Below, piece by piece: positions 3,013 to 35,362 of a stretch of 64,000 nucleotides of DNA. Position 1 is the first letter of the stretch, and every line of letters starts with the position of its first letter. Below the pieces are notes generated by a model that did not search any database, was not told the origin of the DNA, and was given only the letters and a program-made list of their open reading frames with translations. The stretch is taken from positions 28,623 through 92,622 of the forward strand of contig PSKS01000002.1 in the NCBI GenBank assembly GCA_040289115.1. The letters are read 5' to 3'. Source of the DNA: Chloroflexota bacterium (GTDB taxonomy: Bacteria; Chloroflexota; Dehalococcoidia; JAUQQI01). A program made the position numbers and the translations under genes.

Positions 3013-3986
3013 GGTTTTTGGGCCTGGGGCTTTTGCTTTTGGGCCTTTTGCTCTTCCCCCTGGCGGTGGAACTGCCCTACCCCCAGCACGTGATGATCCT
3101 GATTTTCCTCTATGCCATGATGGGCCTGGCCTGGAACATCATCGGCGGCTACGCCGGCCAGGTCTCCCTAGGCGATGCCACCTACTTCGGCATCGGCGCC
3201 TACACCACCGCCATCCTTTTAAGGGAGCTTAACTTAAGCCCCTGGGTCGGCATGGCCTTAGGGGCCCTAAACGCCGTCGTCGTCTCCCTGGTCCTGGGCT
3301 ACCCCTGCTTCCGGGTAAGGGGTCATTACTTCGCCATCGCCACCATCGCCTTAAATGAGATCGTGGCCACCATCTTCACCAACTGGGACTTTGTCGGCGG
3401 TGCCGTGGGAATCTACGTCCCCATCCTGCCCGAAAGCTTTGTAAACCTGCAGTTTCACCGCTCCAAGGCACCCTATTATTACATTGCCCTGGGAATGTTA
3501 ATTTTGGTGATTTTGCTCAACCTCTGGCTCAGTCGCAGCCGCTTAGGCTATTACTTTCGGGCGATTCGGGCCGACCAGGATGCCGCCAGGGCCTTAGGCA
3601 TCGACATCACCCGCTACAAACTTATCGCCTACGCCCTGACGGCCGCCATAACCTCCTTGGGCGGCTCTTTTTATGCCATGTACGTGCTCTACATCGACCC
3701 GACAAGTGTGTTTGCTTTTTCCATCTCACTGCTGGTGGTGCTGGTGGCCGTCCTGGGGGGTGTCGGGACCGTGGCCGGGCCCATCCTCGGCTCGGTGATT
3801 TTAATCAGCCTTTCGGAGGGTACCAGGGTGCTTTTGGGCGGCACCGGCCGGGCCCTGGATGTGGCCATCTACGGGCTGTTGGTGATGGCCATCTCCGTCC
3901 TTCAGCCCCAGGGGCTGGTGGCCTGGTTTAGGGCCTTAAGGCAGCCCAAAGCTCGGGAGGTAAAAGTTGGAAGGGCCCCTTCTTGA
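3006..3986 (+). CDS. livM: branched-chain amino acid ABC transporter permease LivM
   Basis: Second permease of the liv system, hydrophobic throughout. It overlaps livH by 7 nt. Confidence 0.8.
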   Translation: MVRFLGLGLLLLGLLLFPLAVELPYPQHVMILIFLYAMMGLAWNIIGGYAGQVSLGDATYFGIGAYTTAILLRELNLSPWVGMALGALNAVVVSLVLGYPCFRVRGHYFAIATIALNEIVATIFTNWDFVGGAVGIYVPILPESFVNLQFHRSKAPYYYIALGMLILVILLNLWLSRSRLGYYFRAIRADQDAARALGIDITRYKLIAYALTAAITSLGGSFYAMYVLYIDPTSVFAFSISLLVVLVAVLGGVGTVAGPILGSVILISLSEGTRVLLGGTGRALDVAIYGLLVMAISVLQPQGLVAWFRALRQPKAREVKVGRAPS

Positions 3987-4722
3987 GCTAAAGAAGGTTT
4001 CCAAGCGGTTTGGGGGGCTTTGGGCCAACCGGGAGGTAAGCTTTAAGGTCTTTTCCGGGGAGGTCTTAGGCCTTATCGGCCCCAATGGGGCGGGCAAAAC
4101 CACCCTCTTTAACGTGATTACGGGGTTTTTAAGGCCCGATTCGGGCCAAATCCTTTTTGCAGGCCAAGACATAACGGGCTGGCCGCCCGATAAGGTCTGC
4201 CGGGCTGGGATCGCCCGGACCTTCCAACTGGTAAGGGTCTTTCGGGGACTTAGTGTCTTTGAAAACGTGCTGATTGGCGCCCTCTTGCGCAACCCCAAGC
4301 CTAAGGCGGCAGCCGAACTTACCCGCCAGCTGATCGAGCTTACGGGCCTAAGGCCCTGGGCCGAGGAGCTGGTTGACGGGCTGCCGATAGCCGTAAAGAA
4401 GCGGGTTGAACTTGCCCGGGCGCTGGCCACGGGCCCGAAGCTTCTGCTTTTAGATGAGGTTATGGCCGGACTTAACCCTAAAGAGCGCCAGGAGGCCGTC
4501 GAGCTGGTCCGCCGCTTGAAATCCGAGCTAAAGGTTACGGTGCTGATGGTTGAGCACGTGATGGAGGTTCTGATGCCCCTTTCCGACCGGGTGGTGGTCT
4601 TAGACTTCGGGGTAAAGATTGCCGAAGGCAGGCCCGAAGAAGTCGTTAAGGACCCGGAGGTGATAAAGGCCTACCTTGGGGAGCGCTATGCTGCGGGTTT
4701 CGGAAGTCTGGGCGGGCTATGA
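3967..4722 (+). CDS. livG: branched-chain amino acid ABC transporter ATP-binding protein LivG
   Basis: Walker A GPNGAGKTT, ABC signature and the LivG-specific C-terminal AYLGE motif. A TTG start is probable. Confidence 0.85.
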   Translation: MEGPLLELKKVSKRFGGLWANREVSFKVFSGEVLGLIGPNGAGKTTLFNVITGFLRPDSGQILFAGQDITGWPPDKVCRAGIARTFQLVRVFRGLSVFENVLIGALLRNPKPKAAAELTRQLIELTGLRPWAEELVDGLPIAVKKRVELARALATGPKLLLLDEVMAGLNPKERQEAVELVRRLKSELKVTVLMVEHVMEVLMPLSDRVVVLDFGVKIAEGRPEEVVKDPEVIKAYLGERYAAGFGSLGGL

Positions 4723-5392
4723 GGGAAGCTTAGCCCTCTTTGGCTTAAGCCTTGAGGTTGCGCCCGGGCAGGTGGTGGCGCTGGTGGGGGCCAATGGGGC
4801 GGGCAAAAGCACGACATTAAGGGTGATTTCGGGGCTTTTGCGGCCGGAGGCGGGGGAGGTCTGGTTTGAGGGCCGGCGCATCGACGGTTTAAGGCCCCAT
4901 GAGATTGCGGCCTTGGGCATTGCACACGTTCCGGAGGGGCGACGGATTTTTGGGCGTCTCTCGGTTCTAGACAACCTTTACCTTGGGGCTTACCTTAGGC
5001 GGGATGGGGCCGAAAGGCGCAAAAACTTAGAGCGGGTCTTTGGGCTATTCCCGGTCCTTTATGAGCGGCGGCATCAGCTGGCGGGGACCCTAAGCGGTGG
5101 GGAGCAGCAGATGCTGGCTATTGGGCGGGGGCTGATGTTAACCCCGAAGCTTTTGATGCTGGATGAGCCATCGCTGGGGCTTTCGCCGAAACTTGTGGAC
5201 CGGATTTTCGATGCCATAGCGGAAATCAAAAGGCAGGGGACGACGGTGCTTTTGGTGGAGCAGAACCTGGCCGAAACCTTAGAGCTGGCCGATTACGCCT
5301 ACGTCTTGCAGACGGGGCGGGTGACGCTCGAGGGCCCCGGCCCCAAGCTCTTAGAAAGCGAGCTTATCCGCTCGGCCTACCTCGGCCTCTAA
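4688..5392 (+). CDS. livF: branched-chain amino acid ABC transporter ATP-binding protein LivF
   Basis: Walker A GANGAGKST, LSGGEQQ signature and C-terminal SAYLG. The ATG at 4688 (MLRVSEV) is preferred over 4676. It overlaps the livG 3' end. Confidence 0.85.
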   Translation: MLRVSEVWAGYEGSLALFGLSLEVAPGQVVALVGANGAGKSTTLRVISGLLRPEAGEVWFEGRRIDGLRPHEIAALGIAHVPEGRRIFGRLSVLDNLYLGAYLRRDGAERRKNLERVFGLFPVLYERRHQLAGTLSGGEQQMLAIGRGLMLTPKLLMLDEPSLGLSPKLVDRIFDAIAEIKRQGTTVLLVEQNLAETLELADYAYVLQTGRVTLEGPGPKLLESELIRSAYLGL

Positions 5393-5452
5393 TAAAGAAC
5401 CTCGGCCTCCCGGCCGACGGGACCTACGTCTACCTGGATACCGCTTGAGGCC

Positions 5453-6424
5453 TTAAGCCCAGCCGTCCAGGGCCCAGCGCCGAACGGCCCCCTCGTCCAG
5501 CTCAAGCCCATGCCCCGGTGCCTCCAGCAAAACCAGACCCCCATCCTTAAGCTCAACCTCAGGATTGGCCAGGAGCCGCCCAAAATTGAAAACCCCATAC
5601 CCGTGAAAATACTCAACCCACCGACCATTCGGCGTGGCCGCCACCAGGTGAGCATGCAGCTGGTGAAACCAGTGGGGCGCCACCGAAACCCCGTATCCTG
5701 CTGCCAGCGCCCCAATCCGCCGAAACTCGGTTATGCCACCGCAAACAGCCGCATCCGGCTGCAAAACCGCCGCCTCCCTCTCCAAGAGGGCCTTAAAACC
5801 CCAGCGGGTCCCCTCAATCTCCCCGGTGGCCACCGGCACCCGGGTCGCCCGGGCTACCGCCGCATGCCCCTCCACGTCATCGGGCAAAAGCGGCTCCTCA
5901 ATCCAGCCGGGATAGTACGGCTCAAAGTGCCGAACCGCCGCCACCGCATCGGTCGCATCGGCCCAAGCATTATTGGCGTCTAAAAAGATTTCGACCTCTT
6001 CCCCCACCGCCCGACGCACCGCCTCCAGCCGCCGGGCATCCTCTGCCGGCGAAAGCCGCCCAACCTTGATCTTGACCGCCCGAAAGCCAAGGGCCAGGTA
6101 ACCTTCACACTCGGCCGCAAGCTCTTTTAGCCCCTTGCCCTCGGCGTAGTATCCGCCGCTGGCATAGGCCGGGACCCCGTCGGGCCTGAAGGCCCCCAGG
6201 TAGCGAAAGAGGGGCAGGCCGGCCGACCTCGAAAGCAGGTCCCATAAGGCGATGTCCACGGCGCTTAAGGCCCGCAAGACGGCCCCCCTTCGGCCGTGCA
6301 GGAGGGCCTCCCGGTACATTAAGTCCCAGAGCCGTTCGACCTCGGTGGCATCCCGGCCGAGGATGATGTCTTTAAAAAGCTCCCTTACGGCCAGGGCGGG
6401 GATGCCCCCGGCCCGGTGGCCCAA
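5453..6424 (-). CDS. enolase superfamily protein (mandelate racemase/muconate-lactonizing enzyme, sugar-acid dehydratase-like), apparently short at the N-terminus
   Basis: Contains the end of the capping domain (AVDIALWDLLSRSAGLPLFRYLG) and the barrel-domain metal ligands (FLDANNAW, IEEP, VLQPD). It is only 323 aa with a TTG start, and an in-frame stop lies 13 nt upstream. Confidence 0.7.
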   Translation of the reverse strand: MGHRAGGIPALAVRELFKDIILGRDATEVERLWDLMYREALLHGRRGAVLRALSAVDIALWDLLSRSAGLPLFRYLGAFRPDGVPAYASGGYYAEGKGLKELAAECEGYLALGFRAVKIKVGRLSPAEDARRLEAVRRAVGEEVEIFLDANNAWADATDAVAAVRHFEPYYPGWIEEPLLPDDVEGHAAVARATRVPVATGEIEGTRWGFKALLEREAAVLQPDAAVCGGITEFRRIGALAAGYGVSVAPHWFHQLHAHLVAATPNGRWVEYFHGYGVFNFGRLLANPEVELKDGGLVLLEAPGHGLELDEGAVRRWALDGWA

Positions 6425-28418: not shown

Positions 28419-29054
28419 CTAATCCCCCTCCCGTTCGGCCAGCCTGGCTTCGAGGCGCCGCACCGCCGCCACCGGGATCAGCAGGAAGCGGCGGGCCAGC
28501 ACGTCGTAGGCATTAAGGTTGTCGGCCTGGGCTGTCCAGACGTCGGGCAGGTTCCGGGCGGCCAGGATCACTGCCCGGTCGGGCTCGGGCAGGACGACCG
28601 TAATCGAGCGGTCGAGGCCAAGCCCCCGCAGGACCCGGGCAAACTCCCGGGTCTTGCCCTCCGATAGGGCCAGGTCCTCGACGACTATAAGCTCACCATC
28701 TCTAATTTTAGCAGACAGGGCCGCCTTAAGGGCAAGGCGGCGCATCTTCTTCGGCATCTCCTGCCGGTAGTCCCGGGGGTGCGGGCCGTGGACGATTCCC
28801 CCGTGCCGCCAGTGGGGCGCCCGGATGGACCCCTGCCGGGCCCGGCCGGTGCCCTTCTGGACCCAGGGCTTGCGCCCCCCACCGCTTACCTCCCCACGGG
28901 TCTTGGTATCGTGGGTACCCTGGCGCCGGTTGGCCAGGTACATCACCACCGCCTGGTGGAGCAGGGGTACGTTGACCGGTACCCCGAAGACGTCGTCCCG
29001 AACGGTTATCTCCCCAATGATTTCGCCTTCCAGGTTCCGAACCGGCAGCTGCAT
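28419..29054 (-). CDS. rplD: 50S ribosomal protein L4
   Basis: L4 family ([16 protein letters not shown]). Confidence 0.9.
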
Positions 29055-29057
29055 GGC

Positions 29058-29693
29058 TCAGTCCCCCCGCCGGGCCTTGACCGCGTGCCGGATCAGCAGC
29101 AACCCCTTCCGCGGCCCGGGCACGGCACCCTTTACAAACAGCAGATTCCTTTCGGGGTCCACCCGGATGACCTCCAGGTTCTGAACAGTAACCCGCTGGT
29201 GGCCCATGTGCCCGGCCATCCGCAGGCCCTTGATCACCCGGCCGGGGTCAGTGTTGGCCCCGATGGAACCGGGCGCCCGCCACCGGTTCGACTGGCCGTG
29301 GGTCTTCGGGCCACCGGCAAAGCCGTGGCGCTTTACCACCCCGGCAAACCCCCGACCTTTCGAAGTTCCGGTCACGTCCACCAGGTCCCCCGGCTTGAAC
29401 AGGGTCACATCCACCCTCTGCCCCACCGTCACCCGCTCGGCCCCGTCCAGAAGCTTAAATTCCCGCAGGTGCCGCAGGTTGCCCAGCCCCTTCAAGTGGC
29501 CCCGCATGGGCTTGTTTACCCGCTTCTTGGTATCAAAGCCGAGCTGGACGGCCGAATACCCGTCCCGCTCAGGGGTGCGCACCTGAACTACCCAGCAGGG
29601 TCCGGCCTGGATGACGGTAACGGGCACCACCGTTCCGTCCTCCCGGAAGACCCGGGTCATCCCCAGCTTGTAGCCGAGCAGTCCCTCGATCAT
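29058..29693 (-). CDS. rplC: 50S ribosomal protein L3
   Basis: [16 protein letters not shown] matches L3. Confidence 0.92.
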
Positions 29694-29707
29694 GGCCGGT
29701 TTATCCT

Positions 29708-30019
29708 TTACGTGAGCTTGAGCTCAATCTCGACGCCGGCCGGCAAATTGAGCTTCATCAGGGCATCCACCGTCTTCGGCGTCGGGTCGAGGATGTCGAT
29801 AAGCCGCTTATGGGTCCGGATTTCAAACTGCTCCCGGGAATCCTTGTCGATGTGGGGTGAGCGGATGACGGTTATCCGCTCGATCTTCGTCGGCAGCGGA
29901 ATCGGGCCGGCCACCGTTGCGCCGGTCTTTTCGGCCGTCTCCACGATCTGAGCGGCCGACTGGTCTACCAGTTTGTGGTCGAAGGCTTTAAGCCGGATCC
30001 GAATTCGCTGCCGTGCCAT
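29708..30019 (-). CDS. rpsJ: 30S ribosomal protein S10
   Basis: [15 protein letters not shown] matches S10. Confidence 0.92.
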
Positions 30020-30030
30020 CTTAGCCCACC

Positions 30031-31230
30031 CTACTCGATGATTTTGGTCACGACCCCGGCCCCCACCGTCCGGCCACCCTCACGGATGGCAAACCTTAAG
30101 CCCTCCTCCAGGGCCACCGGCGCAATCAGCTTCACCCGAAGGTTTACATTGTCCCCAGGCATCACCATCTCAACCCCAGCAGGCAAAATCACCTCCCCAG
30201 TAACATCCGTCGTCCGAAAGTAAAACTGCGGCCGATAACCCGTAAAAAACGGCGTGTGCCGCCCACCCTCCTCCTTGGTAAGAACGTAAACCTGGGCCTC
30301 AAACTCCGTATGCGGCGTTATCGTCCCAGGCTTGGCCAATACCATCCCACGCTCCACCTCATCCCGCTCAATACCACGAAGCAAACAGCCGACATTGTCC
30401 CCAGCTATCCCCTCATCCAAAACCTTCCGGAACATCTCAACACTGGTCACCACCGTCCGCCGGGTCGGACCAAACCCAACTATCTCCACCTCATCCCCAG
30501 GCCTTATCCGACCTCGCTCAATCCGACCCGTAACCACCGTCCCACGCCCCTTTATCCCAAATACATCCTCTATCGGCATCAAAAACGGCTTGTCTACCGC
30601 ACGCTCAGGCTCCGGAATATAGTTATCTAAAGCCTCTATAAGCTCCCAAATCGGCCGATACTCCGGAGCATCAGGGTCCTGCGACGAAGACTCTAAGGCC
30701 TTAAGGGCAGAACCCCTTATAACCGGCACCTCATCCCCAGGAAACCCATACCGGCTCAAAAGCTCCCTTACCTCCAACTCCACCAGGTCTAAAAGCTCCG
30801 GGTCATCCATCATGTCTACCTTGTTCAAAAATACCACCATCGCCGGAACTTCCACCTGCCGGGCCAAAAGCACATGCTCACGGGTCTGCGGCATCGGCCC
30901 ATCCGGAGCCGCCACCACCAATATCGCACCATCCATCTGGGCCGCACCCGTTATCATGTTCTTGATATAATCGGCATGCCCAGGACAGTCTATGTGCGCA
31001 TAATGACGCTTCGGACTCTCATACTCCACATGCGCAATCGCTATCGTTATCCCACGGGCACGCTCCTCAGGAGCCTTGTCTATCTGCTCAAAGGGCGTAA
31101 ACTGCGCAAGACCCCTCAACGACAAAACCTTCGTTATCGCAGACGTCAACGTCGTCTTCCCATGGTCAATGTGACCTATCGTCCCCACATTCACATGCGG
31201 CTTCTTCCGCTCAAACTTCGGCTTGGACAT
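30031..31230 (-). CDS. tuf: elongation factor Tu
   Basis: [17 protein letters not shown] and NKVD G-motifs with full-length EF-Tu. It ends only 11 nt before rpsJ. Confidence 0.95.
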
Positions 31231-31311
31231 CTTGACCTCCCGAGCAATCTAGCTTTGGCCTACCGGCCGGCTAACGGGGTTTCGAACGACACAAAGAACC
31301 TTACCGGTATC

Positions 31312-31341
31312 ATTATAGGGCCGGGGCTGCGGCCCCGTCAA
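31312..31341 (-). promoter_or_regulatory. sigma70-type promoter of tuf: -35 TTGACG / 18-bp GC spacer / -10 TATAAT, preceded by an A/T tract
   Basis: The minus-strand reading is AATATAAAAACATTGACGGGGCCGCAGCCCCGGCCCTATAATGATACC. The GGGAGGT RBS is 6 nt before the tuf ATG. Confidence 0.6.
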
Positions 31342-31406
31342 TGTTTTTATATTAGACCCAAATGGGGTGGGCCCTGGCCTAAAATGTCTGGTGGAGGTGT
31401 CCGGTT

Positions 31407-34124
31407 ATGCGGGGCGTTTACCCGGCCCACCGGGAAGCCGACGTCGTCCTCCGGGACGGCTCTACTGTCCACGTCCGGCCCGCGCGGCCCGAAGACTGGC
31501 CGGCGCTCCTGGAGTTTTACCGCTCCCTATCCCTTGAAGCCCGAACCTTTAGGTTTTTCTCCCCAGCCGTAAACCTCGAAACCGCCGCCCGCCGAGACTG
31601 CGACATCGATTATGTCAACTCATTTACATTGGTGGCTACCGCCGGTCCCGAGCAGAAGGTGATCGGGGTCGCCTCCTACTTCCGGGTTGATACCGACCGG
31701 GCCGAGGTCGGTTTCGCCGTCGCCGATGCCTACCGCGGACGCGGCCTCGGCACCATCCTCCTCGGCCACCTGGCCGAGGTCGCCGCTGCCAACGGCATCA
31801 ACGTCTTCGAGGCCGTTGTTATGCCTACCAACTACGAGATGATAAAGGTCTTTCGGGATTCGGGCTTCCCAGTCGAGGTCCGACTCGGGCCCGACGAAAT
31901 TCATGTTAGCTTCCCCACCTCCATCACCCCGGAGGCCCTGGAGCGCTTCGAGCGGCGCGAGCAGATCGCCACCAGCAACGCCCTGCGCAACTTCTTCTAC
32001 CCCCGGGCGGTAGCCGTCATTGGGGCCTCCCGCCAGCGGAATACCGTCGGCGGCGCCCTCTTCTGGAACCTCCTCGATTTCGGCTTTGAGGGCCCGGTTT
32101 ACCCGGTCAACATAAACGCCACGGTGGTCCAGTCGGTCCTGGCCTACCCAACCATTGAGGCCGTCCCGGGGCCGGTGGACCTGGCCGTTATTGCGGTGCC
32201 GGCCGAAAAGGTCGTCGGGGTGGCCGAGCAGTGCGGCCGCCGGGGTGTTCGGGCGCTGGTGGTGATTTCGGCCGGGTTTGCCGAAGTAGGGGAAGAAGGC
32301 CGGGCCCGCCAGGCCGAGCTGCTGCGCATCTGCCGCGCCTACGGTATGCGTCTCATCGGCCCCAATTGCATCGGCATCATCAACACCGACCCATCGGCAA
32401 GGCTTAACGCAACCTTCGGCCCGGTTCCTCCGCCGGCCGGGCGGGTCGGTTTCGCCTCCCAGAGCGGGGCCCTAGGGCTCGCCATCATCGACTACGCCCG
32501 TGCCTTTGGTTTGGGCATATCGACCTTCGTATCCATGGGCAACAAGGCCGACATATCCGGAAACGACCTGCTCAATTACTGGGAATCGGACCCTAATACC
32601 GACGTCATCCTCCTTTACCTGGAGTCCTTCGGCAACCCCCGCAAGTTTAGCCGGATCGCCCGCCGGGTTGGCCGGAAAAAGCCCATCGTGGCCGTTAAGA
32701 GCGGCCGGTCCAGCGCCGGCGCCCGGGCAACGGCCTCCCACACCGGGGCCCTCCTGGCCGCCTCGGACATCACCGTAGATGCCCTCTTCCGCCAGTCGGG
32801 GGTGATCCGGACCGATACCCTGGAGGAGCTCTTTGAGGTGGCCTCCCTGCTGGTGAGTCAGCCCCTCCCCCACGGCCGGCGGGTGGGCATTGTGACCAAC
32901 GCCGGCGGACCGGGCATCCTGGCGGCCGACGCCGCCGAGGCCCAGGGGCTCCAGGTGCCTGTCCTTAGCCCGGAGACCCAAACCCGGCTCCGATCCGTCC
33001 TCGTCCCCGAGGCAAGTGTCCTCAACCCGGTGGACATGACGGCCACGGCCGGCGCCGACCAGTACCGCCAAGCAGTGGAGGCGGTGGCCTCCGACCCCAA
33101 CATCGACGCCGTTATGGCCATCTTCTTGCCGCCCCTGCGAATTCCCAGCGAGGAGGTGGCCGCCGCCATCGTGGACGGGGCCAGGCTGGCCAACGGCCTG
33201 GGCAAGCCCGTCCTTTCGGTTTTTATCTCATCCCGGGGCGTGCCCGACGAGCTCAAACGGGCCGACATACGGGTGCCTTCGTTTGCCTTCCCCGAAAATG
33301 CGGCCATCGCCCTGGCCCACGCCGTCCGCTACGCCGAGTGGCGGGCCCGGCCCCTCACCGACCCGCCCCGCTTCGAGGGTATCGGCCGGGATGAGGCGGC
33401 AGCCGTCGTCGCCAGGGCCTTGGGCCAGGGGGACAGCTGGCTCGGGCCGGCCGAAACCTGGCAGCTTCTCAGCTGTTACGGCCTCAACGTTGTCGACCAG
33501 ATCCTCGCCCGGACTCCCGAGGAGGCCGCCCAGGCCGCCGCCAACCTTGGGGGCGAGGTGGTCCTTAAGGCTTTCGCCCCGGGCCTCACCCACAAGACCG
33601 AGCGGGGGGCAGTGCGCCTGGGGCTCCGGGACCCGGAGGAGGTTCGGCAAGCCGCGACGGAGATGGCCAGCCGCTTGGGGGCCCAAGGCCTTCACGAGGT
33701 CACCTTTGTTGTCCAGCGCTACGTGACCGGTGGGGTTGAGATGCTGGCCGGAATGGTCCACGACCGACATTTCGGCCCCATCATCGTCTGCGGGGCCGGC
33801 GGAATTTTCGTCGAGCTTTTAAAGGACGTTGCTGTCCGGCTCACGCCCCTTACCCGGGAGGATGCCGCCGAGATGGTCCGTGAGCTTAGAAGCTATCCTC
33901 TCCTTACGGGTTTTAGGGGTTCGCCCCCGGTGGACGTGGCGGCCTTCGAGGAGACCCTCCTGCGGCTGAGCACCCTGGCTGAGGACCTGCCCGACGTGGC
34001 CGAGGTCGACCTCAACCCGGTCCTGGTCAGGGAGCGGGGGGCGGTCATTCTAGACGCCCGAGTCCGGGTCGAGCCGGCCCAGCCGCCCCCGCCCCTGGGG
34101 GCCAGGACCCGCCCGGCCTTCTAA
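31407..34124 (+). CDS. GNAT N-acetyltransferase fused to NDP-forming acyl-CoA synthetase (CoA-binding + ATP-grasp), PatA-like protein acetyltransferase / ACD
   Basis: The N-terminal GNAT has the acetyl-CoA pyrophosphate loop RGRGLGT. It is followed by a succinyl-CoA-synthetase-like CoA-binding domain and an ATP-grasp domain, 905 aa in all. Confidence 0.8.
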   Translation: MRGVYPAHREADVVLRDGSTVHVRPARPEDWPALLEFYRSLSLEARTFRFFSPAVNLETAARRDCDIDYVNSFTLVATAGPEQKVIGVASYFRVDTDRAEVGFAVADAYRGRGLGTILLGHLAEVAAANGINVFEAVVMPTNYEMIKVFRDSGFPVEVRLGPDEIHVSFPTSITPEALERFERREQIATSNALRNFFYPRAVAVIGASRQRNTVGGALFWNLLDFGFEGPVYPVNINATVVQSVLAYPTIEAVPGPVDLAVIAVPAEKVVGVAEQCGRRGVRALVVISAGFAEVGEEGRARQAELLRICRAYGMRLIGPNCIGIINTDPSARLNATFGPVPPPAGRVGFASQSGALGLAIIDYARAFGLGISTFVSMGNKADISGNDLLNYWESDPNTDVILLYLESFGNPRKFSRIARRVGRKKPIVAVKSGRSSAGARATASHTGALLAASDITVDALFRQSGVIRTDTLEELFEVASLLVSQPLPHGRRVGIVTNAGGPGILAADAAEAQGLQVPVLSPETQTRLRSVLVPEASVLNPVDMTATAGADQYRQAVEAVASDPNIDAVMAIFLPPLRIPSEEVAAAIVDGARLANGLGKPVLSVFISSRGVPDELKRADIRVPSFAFPENAAIALAHAVRYAEWRARPLTDPPRFEGIGRDEAAAVVARALGQGDSWLGPAETWQLLSCYGLNVVDQILARTPEEAAQAAANLGGEVVLKAFAPGLTHKTERGAVRLGLRDPEEVRQAATEMASRLGAQGLHEVTFVVQRYVTGGVEMLAGMVHDRHFGPIIVCGAGGIFVELLKDVAVRLTPLTREDAAEMVRELRSYPLLTGFRGSPPVDVAAFEETLLRLSTLAEDLPDVAEVDLNPVLVRERGAVILDARVRVEPAQPPPPLGARTRPAF

Positions 34125-34128
34125 AAGG

Positions 34129-34716
34129 CTACCAGTCGCCGGGCTGGGCATACGGGTAGGCCCAGAGGGCCACCGTCAGGGTCAGGGCCTTGAACCAGGC
34201 CTGGTGCATCTTGTCCACGTCCTCGGTCGAATGGCCCTTTTTGAACAAGAAGGGCCGAACGGTGGCCGTTATCGGGTAAATGAAAGCTATGAGGTAGCGA
34301 AGGGGGATTTGTGGGACCGAATTTACGCCGTCGGTCTGATTTTTCTTGGTCCGGTGGTGCCGCAGGCCGATTTCGTGCTGGTAATCGAGCCAGGCCTGGT
34401 TAAATTCGGCCCGGCACAGGTCCCGCACCCACTGCCCGAACCGCTGGCGAACTCGCCCCAGGTAGTCGGGGATCGGGTTGCCCTGGGGGTCAGCAAAGTA
34501 GTAGACCAGGTGGGGGTTAGAGCCGACGAATTCATACCAGACGTCTAAAAGGGCCTCCACGTGGTCCGCGAGGACCTCTCCGGCCAGCCGCAGGTAACGG
34601 GCATCCTCGTCGGTGAACAGGACCGTCTTTTTTAAAAGCTCAAAGTCGGACGGGGAGACCGGCGATGGGCTAACCTGAGGGGTTCCGTAAGTGTATCCGG
34701 GGATGGGTTGGGTCAT
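34129..34716 (-). CDS. protoglobin (single-domain haem globin of the protoglobin family)
   Basis: Near-identical blocks to archaeal protoglobin: IPGYTYG, FTDEDARYL, WYEFVGSNPHLVYYF, WLDYQHEIGLRHHRTKKNQTDGV, YLIAFIYPITATVRPF. The start was set to the ATG at 34716 with a perfect AGGAGGTG RBS. Confidence 0.8.
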   Translation of the reverse strand: MTQPIPGYTYGTPQVSPSPVSPSDFELLKKTVLFTDEDARYLRLAGEVLADHVEALLDVWYEFVGSNPHLVYYFADPQGNPIPDYLGRVRQRFGQWVRDLCRAEFNQAWLDYQHEIGLRHHRTKKNQTDGVNSVPQIPLRYLIAFIYPITATVRPFLFKKGHSTEDVDKMHQAWFKALTLTVALWAYPYAQPGDW

Positions 34717-34717
34717 T

Positions 34718-35362
34718 TTAGTCACCTCCTGGGGAATTTTCTTCGCCCGTTTCGATGGGCTCGGCATCCGGACATTCAAAATAGGTGTGTTCGGCGGGCA
34801 GTGGAGCATCCATGAAGGCACAGTGGTGGGGTCCACCGGGACTATCCGGGTGGGCAAAGGGCTGAAAGAAGCGGCACTGCCAGCACATCAGGTACGGCCG
34901 CACAAAGCCTCGGGCGACGAGGCCGGCAATGACCCCGACCAGAAGCTGCCGAAGGGTCTGCTGCTCGGCCGGGTCGAGGGCAGCCAGAATCTGGCGGAGG
35001 GGCTCAAGCATATCCTCCAGCCGGTCGGCCCGTTCCTGGCCGGCGGGGGTAAGGGCCAGGGTAACGACCCGGCCGTCGGCGGCCGAGCGGGCCTTTTCCA
35101 CCAGGCTCTTGGCCGTGAGGGTATCCACCACTTCGCTGGCGGTGGCTAGGGTGGTTCCGAGGCGCTGGGCCACCCCAGTTATGTTGCGGGCGCCGGGACG
35201 TACCCGCTTGAGGAAGGTGAGGGCATTGGCCTGAGCCGGGGAGAGACCTGCGGCCCCAGCGGCGTCCCGGACCATGAGGGTGATGGCTTGGCTCACCCGG
35301 AAGAGGGCCATGGCCAGGTCGGCCGGAAGGTCCTGGGCGCGACGAACCGGGTCAAAGGCCAT
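34718..35362 (-). CDS. MarR family transcriptional regulator with about 60-aa Cys/His-rich C-terminal extension
   Basis: The winged-HTH MarR core spans LSPAQANALTFL..GVAQRLG..DGRVV.L.LTPAG. The C-terminal tail is MCWQCRFF..HHCAF..EHTYFECPD. Its stop is 1 nt before the protoglobin ATG. Confidence 0.8.
   Translation of the reverse strand: MAFDPVRRAQDLPADLAMALFRVSQAITLMVRDAAGAAGLSPAQANALTFLKRVRPGARNITGVAQRLGTTLATASEVVDTLTAKSLVEKARSAADGRVVTLALTPAGQERADRLEDMLEPLRQILAALDPAEQQTLRQLLVGVIAGLVARGFVRPYLMCWQCRFFQPFAHPDSPGGPHHCAFMDAPLPAEHTYFECPDAEPIETGEENSPGGD

Follow-up and report, generated by a model that had tools for sequence, protein, structure and literature searches.

Cytosine avoidance in the tuf gene of a Chloroflexota bacterium and the two loci that carry it

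Why should a tuf gene stand apart from rpsL, rpsG and fusA, with a promoter of its own, and be written in codons unlike those of the ribosomal protein genes beside it? The question is raised by a stretch of 64,000 nucleotides from a Chloroflexota bacterium (Dehalococcoidia; JAUQQI01), positions 28,623 to 92,622 of contig PSKS01000002.1 in assembly GCA_040289115.1, which is referred to here as the window. An earlier note, made from the letters of this DNA, had described both peculiarities of tuf, the gene for elongation factor Tu (EF-Tu), and had offered three explanations: horizontal replacement of the gene, a translocated second copy, and a distinct class of expression or tRNA adaptation. The account presented here, which we consider likely when taken as a whole, is that the species has two tuf loci, that the contig joins them through a collapsed repeat, that the codon bias is inherited, and that it arises from selection on the transcript.

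Avoidance of cytosine in the body of tuf

The protein encoded by the window tuf has 100% amino acid identity with one named "MAG: elongation factor Tu [Chloroflexota bacterium]" (MAG, metagenome-assembled genome), and the gene differs in composition from its surroundings. Over positions 30001 to 31000, a GC content of 0.564 and a plus-strand GC skew of −0.35 compare with values of about 0.65 and about −0.1 in the neighbors. Third positions in tuf are A 0.08, C 0.12, G 0.52 and T 0.29, whereas the ribosomal protein genes on the same strand have third-position C of 0.35 to 0.41 and T of 0.10 to 0.13 (chi2 = 128.6, p = 1.1e-27 vs tuf); the earlier note had described rplC and rpsJ as using C-ending codons. 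Isoleucine is encoded by ATA 16 times, ATC 4 times and ATT 8 times, so that ATA, already singled out as an unusual choice, accounts for 16 of 28 codons (57%). Among the other residues, ACG supplies 19 of 25 Thr codons (ACC, 5), GGG supplies 22 of 37 Gly codons (GGC, 3), TTT supplies 14 of 15 Phe codons (TTC, 1), and TTG plus TTA make up 17 of 29 Leu codons. The earlier description of codons ending in G, T or A is borne out for ACG, ATA, TTG, GGG and TTT; AAT is not dominant (3 vs 4 AAC), and the statement that the plus strand is almost devoid of G was too strong, C making up about 18% of the sense strand. Among approximately 70 open reading frames (ORFs) of the window, tuf is the sole strong outlier, with a C share at fourfold degenerate third positions (fourfold C) of 0.11, the next lowest value being 0.27. 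The C share of two-fold pyrimidine-ending codons (Y2C) is 0.31 in tuf and 0.74 in the neighbors. No 78-nt stretch of tuf contains more C than G, and the mean C/G is 0.49 to 0.51, compared with 0.75 to 1.2 in other genes.

A much weaker shift lies elsewhere in the window. The same usage had been claimed for livHMGF, and this applies mildly to livG and livF (fourfold C of 0.38 and 0.28) and not to livH and livM, which are normal (0.50 and 0.55), as is livK; the three normal genes lie just upstream. Together with an opposite-strand gene of the enolase superfamily (MR/MLE; fourfold C of 0.33), livG and livF occupy positions 3967 to 6424, where the sense strand has a mild excess of G over C (skew of +0.14 to +0.21), fourfold C is 0.28 to 0.38 and Y2C is 0.46 to 0.55. 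This shift tracks gene orientation rather than the direction of replication.

Within the body of tuf, meaning all but its last 20 sense codons, NNC gives way to NNG in four-fold boxes and CTG gives way to TTG, with ATA used for Ile in the clade of the window. In the strongest lineages, T also replaces C in two-fold codons whose C- and T-ending forms share one tRNA; this component is strong in the window clade (Y2C of 0.31 to 0.47 vs 0.74 to 0.84), in a gammaproteobacterial locus (L065) and in a member of the Chloroflexota designated the P0025 organism. As the density of flanking G rises in the body, T replaces G at third positions (0.08 to 0.78) while C remains at 0.05 to 0.08 in the strong-bias lineages. 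These patterns indicate that the bias targets the nucleotide C rather than particular codons.

The avoidance starts at codon 1, the 5' end not being exempt, and stops at a step between codons −20 and −21, with a pooled C share of 0.56 to 0.88 in codons −1 to −20 and of 0.13 to 0.20 in codons −21 to −36. For Gly, Val, Ala, Thr and Ile codons, tail C is 0.68 to 0.69 in strong-bias, moderate and normal lineages, whereas body C is 0.12, 0.29 and 0.59, respectively. Tail C clearly exceeds body C in tuf only (by +0.19, and in 84% of 58 GC-rich loci), the differences in 16 other translation genes ranging from −0.23 to +0.08. The genes that adjoin tuf (fusA, rpsJ and rpmG) are not C-poor.

Codon junctions were also compared in six lineages (the window, L006, L096, L010, L065 and L024). 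A third-position C followed by a first-position G was depleted (6 observed vs 18.6 expected in the window). Third-position T was enriched before G in most of the six lineages and depleted before A in six of six, and C before A tended to enrichment. The depletion of C before G does not represent general CpG avoidance, because ACG, CCG, GCG and CGG are abundant.

Codon usage in tuf was compared with that of adjacent translation genes at 80 phylogenetically scattered bacterial loci, a nonrandom sample, and at several chosen loci, the sets of neighboring genes being taken from tblastn matches. The ratio of third-position C in tuf to that in its neighbors ranged from 0.28 to 1.6 across the survey. 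Fourfold C was 0.06 to 0.11 in tuf and 0.40 to 0.45 in the neighbors in the window clade; the corresponding values were 0.08 and 0.45 in L065, which belongs to a gammaproteobacterial MAG, 0.10 and 0.51 in a Gemmatimonadota locus (L024, with G at 0.90), 0.06 and 0.40 in a Chloroflexota locus (L010), and 0.08 and 0.58 to 0.87 in the P0025 organism. In the cultured Sphaerobacter thermophilus the values were 0.17 and 0.29 to 0.45, and in the finished genome of Thermus thermophilus they were 0.10 and 0.47 to 0.63 (15 genes). A Thiogranum MAG whose EF-Tu shares 90% identity with that of L065 has near-normal usage (C3 ratio, 0.83). For the P0025 organism, fusA (0.72) and nusG (0.87) are biased in the direction opposite to tuf. 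Other genes compared (fusA, nusG, rplKAJL, rpoC and the S10-operon genes) were without a tuf-type bias, and tuf itself showed no such bias in HR25 (Chloroflexota), in the Actinomycetota loci, in Burkholderia or in E. coli. A literature search found no description or explanation of tuf-specific C-avoidance. Taken together, these comparisons indicate that C-avoidance is specific to tuf, runs opposite to the usage of other translation genes, and is recurrent in distant GC-rich lineages. Counting against this conclusion is the nature of the strongest cases, which are short-read MAGs except for Thermus and Sphaerobacter. A distinct expression or tRNA-adaptation class, as the earlier note had proposed, is not what was found: fusA, nusG and the other genes just named do not share the bias, and a relative and Thermus show the opposite one in such genes.

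The sharpest contrast among the loci compared was seen in a relative with two tuf loci on one contig (L096 and L097), where fourfold C was 0.85 to 0.87 in nusG and secE against 0.08 in tuf, which lies 50 to 600 nt upstream of them.

Horizontal replacement of tuf, by an allele from a donor with G3/T3-rich usage, would suit the lower GC content of the gene (0.56 vs 0.65) and a codon usage far from that of all its neighbors, but the comparisons with relatives make it very improbable. The nearest EF-Tu proteins outside the clade are from Chloroflexota, at 83 to 86% identity (Thermomicrobia, Dehalococcoidia, Anaerolineae and Sphaerobacter), so that the protein is typical of the phylum, and the ribosomal protein identities to those organisms rank like the EF-Tu identities. 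Third-position C in tuf is 0.12 in every member of the clade. Between the window and a sister species, 98 codons of tuf differ synonymously, with approximately 15 third-position C sites lost and approximately 14 gained; because sites turn over while the total is constant, the bias represents an actively maintained equilibrium and not a fading import, and the sister species shares it despite a synonymous codon divergence of about 25%. Synonymous divergence in tuf (0.255) is slightly below that in the neighbors (0.30 to 0.38). Equal bias arose in Thermus, in a gammaproteobacterium and in Gemmatimonadota, each with an EF-Tu typical of its lineage, and in every lineage the shift in composition extends from the ATG to a point 60 nt short of the stop codon. 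The codon bias of the window tuf is, on these comparisons, genuine and vertically inherited. The earlier note had named two results that would remove its anomaly: that highly expressed genes in general share the usage, or that tuf/fusA synteny is broken identically in all relatives with a vertical EF-Tu phylogeny. Neither was found in the form in which it was written; the codon anomaly therefore stands, whereas the explanations that the note offered do not.

These findings bear on common practice. tuf is a standard reference gene for "optimal" codons, yet it runs opposite to other translation genes in Thermus, in several Chloroflexota and in other GC-rich lineages, and for genomes of this kind a codon-adaptation index could be distorted if tuf is in its training set. 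That Thermus thermophilus shows the pattern makes it testable in a genetically tractable organism.

Two tuf loci and the junction in the window

The genomic context of tuf was examined in relatives with 96% amino acid and 88 to 89% nucleotide identity to the window tuf, referred to here as the sister species. Two arrangements were found. In the first (tufA; L002, L006, L008 and L009), the gene order is rpsL-rpsG-fusA-tuf-rpsJ-rplC and onward; in the second (tufB; L007), an acetyltransferase gene is divergent from tuf-rpmG-secE-nusG-rplKAJL. The tuf genes in the two contexts (L006 and L007) are 100% identical, with the caveat that a single collapsed node of the assembly graph may underlie both contigs of one assembly.

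Contigs of the same species as the window (99.8% identity) show both arrangements. L093 and L094 carry the tufB locus (genes for MurJ, dehydrogenases, MarR, protoglobin and the acetyltransferase, the last divergent from tuf-rpmG-secE-nusG-rplKAJL) and are collinear with the window from 41223 to 30015, beyond which they diverge. L091 carries the tufA locus (rpoBC-rpsLG-fusA-tuf) and aligns with the window from 31240 to 30015 only, where it stops. The second tuf that the earlier note had suggested looking for downstream of fusA is thus present, on L091; a metagenome scan for a same-species contig with fusA-tuf-rpsJ returned the contig of L091 only. Two stand-alone contigs, L001 (1216 bp) and L092 (1226 bp), consist of the repeat unit or tuf only. 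In the relative represented by L096 and L097 (ENA ERZ511473 NODE_9), a single 668-kb contig contains both tuf copies as direct repeats separated by 142 kb, with 0 differences in 1200 nt, and their identity stops 6 nt beyond the ORF. These alignments indicate that the species has two near-identical tuf genes, tufA at the end of the str operon and running into rpsJ, and tufB with its own promoter. Judging from the behavior of duplicated tuf genes, the two copies are presumably kept identical by gene conversion.

The repeat common to the two loci consists of the tuf ORF with 10 nt upstream and 16 nt downstream, and it reaches the ATGGC of the next gene, with which both rpsJ and rpmG begin. The upstream flank of the window tuf, including the promoter, is that of the tufB locus, and the downstream flank is that of the tufA/S10 locus, such that the window contig would enter the 1,226-bp repeat from the tufB side and leave it on the tufA side. 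fusA appears to be missing, and tuf appears to have a promoter of its own, because the upstream flank of tufB has been joined to the downstream flank of tufA. Accordingly, the detachment of tuf from rpsL-rpsG-fusA that had been reported is correct as a description of the window, in which tblastn detected no fusA, rpsG, rpsL, secE, nusG or rplKAJL and no second tuf, and is accounted for by the other tuf copy of the species. The near-consensus promoter and A/T tract described in the 176-bp divergent region (31231-31406) were found as described, and they belong to the tufB locus.

The join itself is most simply read as an assembly product, formed through the collapsed repeat, and we favor this reading with some reservation. 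Contigs break at the repeat and other contigs contain nothing but the repeat; therefore, assemblers cannot resolve it. Draft genomes of Deinococcus and Thermus isolates commonly include contigs of approximately 1.2 kb with tuf only, and further hybrid contigs, with tufB-type sequence upstream and rpsJ downstream, were found in the sister species (L003) and in L065, in which genes for tRNA-Lys/Tyr/Gly/Thr precede tuf and rpsJ follows it. Two observations tell against an assembly product: all three hybrid contigs are of one type (tufB upstream, tufA downstream), and the tuf copies of Thermus and Salmonella are inverted, so that a viable inversion there would give exactly such a junction.

Alternatively, the hybrid may be real, if tufA and tufB of this strain recombined (by inversion, should the copies be inverted) and the S10 operon was thereby moved downstream of the tufB promoter. 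We regard this as possible but doubtful. Of the recombination events between the tuf genes of Salmonella, up to 50% yield inversions; strains with the inversion are viable, at a cost of 8% in growth rate (PMC6735719). The tuf copies of Thermus are inverted across the origin, the sign of the GC skew is unchanged across the junction in the window, and the recurrence of the same type of junction in L003 and L065 would also suit a real rearrangement. Against it, the canonical tufB-rpmG-secE locus is present on same-species contigs at 99.8% identity, the repeat-only contigs and the contigs ending at the repeat show a repeat that assemblers cannot resolve, and the only relative with both copies on one contig has them as direct repeats; with direct repeats 142 kb apart, such a junction would therefore delete about 142 kb, including fusA, rpsL, rpsG, nusG and secE. 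At nt 172 the window tuf agrees with the tufB haplotype, and at nt 565 and 870 it agrees with that of tufA, which is a weak hint of recombination, as the haplotypes defined by these three informative single-nucleotide polymorphisms stem from different samples. The translocated second copy envisaged in the earlier note is therefore nearly right: the species has two tuf loci and the window has a flank from each, but the hybrid junction is itself probably a product of assembly.

The window tuf is, moreover, a third haplotype, differing at nt 813 and 816 from the tufA contig (L091) and from the tufB contigs (L093 and L094). The haplotype pattern fits a switch from tufB to tufA within the gene, and strain variation between samples could give an equal result.

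A chimeric contig, its tuf brought in from another organism during assembly, can be set aside as extremely improbable: tuf is a conserved repeat that tangles assembly graphs, and a 1.2-kb tuf-only contig of this clade (L004) is binned in a MAG labeled Alphaproteobacteria, but the same sequence and bias occur in many independent assemblies, the bias also occurs in finished genomes of cultured Thermus and Sphaerobacter, and the EF-Tu lineage agrees with the flanking genes. L004 (GCA_035575015.1, DATLYI010000141.1; 1218 bp) is probably a mis-binned collapsed-repeat contig; its protein, P0009, bears an Alphaproteobacteria name in NCBI. Duplicated tuf genes thus break or mis-join assemblies, and tuf-only contigs may land in the wrong bin, so that "broken" str-operon synteny in MAGs is not to be taken as biology unless the reads themselves support it. 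As regards synteny, the original observation is ordinary and explained by the known biology of duplicated tuf genes, probably with an assembly artifact.

The features of the locus are listed in Table 1. For the predicted tufB promoter, 0.8 such sites are expected in shuffled sequence, and the sister species has TTGACA-18-TATAAT at the equivalent position upstream of tufB. The A/T-rich tract resembles an UP element and may act as one. The leader between the promoter and tuf is kept between species (L007 and L003; e.g., tttgtgtc..cgaaacccc..gccgg.cggta) and is without C depletion, a 78-nt stretch of it containing 23 C and 21 G, whereas the beginning of the ORF has 13 C and 29 G. The leader may have a regulatory role, like the Rho-dependent leader of Salmonella tufB. 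A GC-rich palindrome, CGGGGCTGCGGCCCCG, lies inside the promoter spacer (31322-31337, plus strand). The complement of the A/T tract, which is T-rich, comes after CGGGGCTGCGGCCCCG on the plus strand, giving a terminator-like score for transcription antisense to tuf; CGGGGCTGCGGCCCCG is absent in the sister species, and the likeness to a terminator is therefore probably a coincidence.

Table 1. Features in and around tuf, in window coordinates
Feature	Position	Strand	Basis
tuf ORF, EF-Tu, 399 aa	30031..31230	-	ORF and translation; Pfam GTP_EFTU, D2 and D3 domains
tuf body, C-avoiding, codons 1-379	30094..31230	-	third-position C, 0-6 per 30-codon window; C share 0.14 (C-capable codons)
tuf tail, last 20 sense codons and stop, ordinary C-ending usage	30031..30093	-	C share 0.47 vs body 0.14
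Exact 1,226-bp repeat unit common to tufA and tufB loci	30015..31240		contig alignments
Predicted sigma-70-type promoter of tufB locus, TTGACG-18 nt-TATAAT	31312..31341	-	11/12 consensus matches
A/T-rich tract directly upstream of -35 hexamer	31342..31354	-	read from sequence
tufB 5' leader	31231..31311	-	includes GGGAGG Shine-Dalgarno at 31236-31241
Divergent 905-aa GNAT / ADP-forming acyl-CoA-synthetase-like acetyltransferase	31407..34124	+	Pfam GNAT, CoA-binding domains, ATP-grasp
rpsJ, first gene of S10 operon, usual tufA downstream neighbor	29708..30019	-	100% aa identity to L006 rpsJ

The opposite-strand acetyltransferase gene was described correctly in the earlier note; it is the conserved upstream neighbor of tufB, found at an equal position in L007, L093 and L094. 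On the other side, rpsJ starts 12 nt past the tuf stop codon and is followed by the rest of the S10 operon. Adjoining the acetyltransferase gene, positions 34129 to 35362 contain genes for a protoglobin and a MarR-family regulator, with overlapping ORF calls; the protoglobin has 195 aa as called in the same-species contigs, and 242 aa in the window when counted from its first in-frame start. No tRNA genes were found in the 64-kb window, and an Rfam scan of positions 29500 to 31700 gave no match.

Possible causes of the bias

What, then, keeps C out of the body of tuf? We infer that the bias is due to selection on the tuf transcript or on its sense strand and not to the tRNA pool, to mutation bias or to transfer; the pattern suggests that synonymous sites are under a strong selective force. 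The transcription termination factor Rho loads on C-rich, G-poor, ribosome-free RNA of approximately 60 to 80 nt. A C-poor, G-rich tuf message would be expected to stay complete when translation slows, and a circle would be avoided in which too little EF-Tu leads to uncoupling of transcription from translation, uncoupling to premature termination of tuf, and termination to still less EF-Tu. Exchange of C for G should be the most effective change and exchange of C for U less so, in agreement with the observed ranking, and C in the last 60 nt or so could no longer cause termination inside the ORF. In composition only, tuf looks resistant to Rho, as C exceeds G in 0% of its 78-nt stretches and C/G is approximately 0.5. 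Cyanobacteria reportedly lack Rho (D'Heygere et al. 2013), and in a comparison that might have told against evasion of Rho, two GC-rich Synechococcus genomes (64 to 65% GC) have a canonical C-preferring tuf with no contrast between body and tail. Rho acts on the tufB message of Salmonella, with an outcome that depends on translation speed, according to the citation of Brandis et al. 2016 in PMC12360218.

That the tuf transcript evades Rho in this way is the specific mechanism that we put forward, tentatively. Its general form, in which the tuf body of many GC-rich bacteria, and not the last 60 nt, has been selected to be C-poor so that Rho or another C-dependent process cannot bind or terminate the transcript, is offered with more hesitation still. 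If true, the supply of EF-Tu would be immune to the transcription-translation uncoupling that a shortage of EF-Tu itself causes, and synonymous sites would be subject to a gene-specific selective force that is neither tRNA adaptation nor mutation bias. Several findings sit poorly with Rho as the agent. The step at codon −20 is sharper than the kinetic argument predicts, YC dinucleotides at codon junctions are not depleted, and the tufB leader is not C-poor. Many GC-rich lineages that are expected to have Rho lack the bias (the Actinomycetota loci, Burkholderia and HR25), the cyanobacterial control is effectively a single lineage, and the need to protect tuf and not the ribosomal protein genes, fusA or rpoC is a matter of argument only.

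The genes that follow tuf are of interest in this respect. rpsJ (L006, 7547-7858) and rpmG (L093, 11212-11379), which start 12 nt after tuf, have the highest sense-strand C/G of the genes examined (1.20 and 1.10), with C exceeding G in 67 to 73% of 78-nt stretches. A C-poor tuf message followed directly by a rut-like stretch in rpsJ or rpmG may provide an attenuation point before the downstream operons.

Selection at the level of translation is a less probable cause, though not a negligible one. In this explanation tuf uses the tRNAs that bulk genes use least (those with C34 or U34 for NNG, tRNA-Leu-CAA and tRNA-Ile2), which would buffer EF-Tu synthesis whenever the heavily used tRNAs run short; a selective-charging model of this kind was reportedly described by Elf et al. 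2003. The change from NNC to NNG in four-fold boxes is the largest and most widespread component of the bias, accompanied by TTG, CGG and, in the window clade, ATA, and NNG, TTG, CGG and ATA use tRNAs other than those for the codons that the neighbors prefer. Two-fold pyrimidine-ending codons are hardly shifted in L024, L010 and Sphaerobacter. However, the strong replacement of C by T in single-tRNA two-fold codons (window clade, L065 and the P0025 organism) would not be expected from tRNA choice, it is T and never C that interrupts runs of G in the body, and the use of under-used tRNAs gives no reason for the last 20 codons to be different.

Transcription-associated mutation is unlikely. Here, C would deaminate to T on the exposed non-template strand of the most transcribed gene, perhaps more so at high temperature. 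The window clade, Thermus and L065 have a skew in the expected direction, their sense strand being C-poor and T-enriched; when C is removed with the other bases at their baseline ratios, the calculated values are near those observed in Thermus and the sister clade; and several of the strong cases are thermophilic. The borders of the bias argue otherwise, as they match the ORF: the last 60 transcribed nt, the leader, and fusA, rpsJ and rpmG at distances of 8 to 48 nt are all normal. In Sphaerobacter and L024, T falls (fourfold T of 0.04 and 0.00) while G reaches 0.78 to 0.90. The ribosomal protein genes, equally essential and heavily transcribed, are unaffected, and the synonymous rate in tuf is not raised.

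A number of other candidates were tried and rejected. Ordinary translational selection would act in the reverse direction, and other translation genes do not share the bias. Minimization of mRNA structure has a modest effect (−0.311 kcal/mol/nt for the native gene vs −0.349 after recoding with neighbor usage), and there is no extra selection against structure, the native gene being slightly more structured than shuffles with its own usage (−0.295 +/- 0.007). Hidden off-frame stops ("ambush") show no consistent excess over own-usage shuffles. G-quadruplex motifs are not enriched, and runs of at least 4 G are depleted. Retention of C for accuracy at invariant residues gave odds ratios of 0.7 to 2.1, mostly not significant. 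For the tail, a conserved RNA hairpin in the last 90 nt was dismissed (RNAalifold, only −2.4 kcal/mol, with unconvincing covariation), as was C as a by-product of breaking G-runs, since the body uses T and tail C is 0.5 to 0.7 at every density of flanking G; a general codon effect at 3' ends does not apply, the tail excess being clear in tuf only. AGR enrichment for Arg is not general.

Comparison with known systems

The arrangement proposed for this species resembles that of tufA and tufB in Salmonella and E. coli, where there are likewise two loci, one closing the str operon and the other with its own promoter upstream of secE-nusG. In these organisms, too, identity between the two copies does not extend beyond the gene (PMC5485169; PMC6735719). 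In the Chloroflexota species, by comparison, the tuf stop codon is followed after 12 nt by rpmG or rpsJ, whose ATGGC falls within the repeat. Its tufB is preceded by a divergent acetyltransferase gene, whereas that of Salmonella and E. coli is preceded by tRNA genes. The hybrid operon of the window has the structure that the known tuf-tuf inversion of Salmonella produces. E. coli tufA is without C-avoidance in its body (C of 0.27 vs 0.24 in fusA). The tufB of Salmonella has a rut site in its leader that serves autoregulation (Brandis et al. 2016, as reported in PMC12360218), whereas in the species of the window it is the whole body of the ORF that is proposed to have been cleared of Rho-binding potential.

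tufA and tufB of Thermus thermophilus carry an equal signature, with fourfold C of 0.10, fourfold G of 0.75 and third-position G of 0.64. GGG encodes 24 of 39 Gly residues, TTT is used 10 times vs 2 for TTC, and TTR supplies 12 of 27 Leu codons; C stands at 0.09 in the body and at 0.77 in the tail, and the two copies differ at 1 nt. When Thermus tuf was sequenced, Kushiro et al. 1987 reportedly remarked on its third positions, about 61% of which are G. Thermus tuf is without ATA, whereas in the window clade ATA makes up 57% of Ile codons.

The tufB of enterococci, reportedly acquired by transfer (Ke et al. 2000) and hence xenologous, is like the window tuf in having a composition unlike that of its genome; here, in contrast, the phylogeny is vertical, the two copies are identical, and no divergent second type was seen among the loci compared. 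Finally, the selected codon bias of highly expressed genes (Sharp et al. 2005; Wald et al. 2012, PMC3424539) is similar in strength, the window tuf showing a 5- to 10-fold shift in odds at synonymous sites. It differs in direction, because the window tuf prefers T over C in two-fold codons and GGG for Gly, in extent, because the ribosomal protein genes, fusA and nusG do not have the bias in common with tuf, and in its limits, because the bias of tuf ends 20 codons before the stop.

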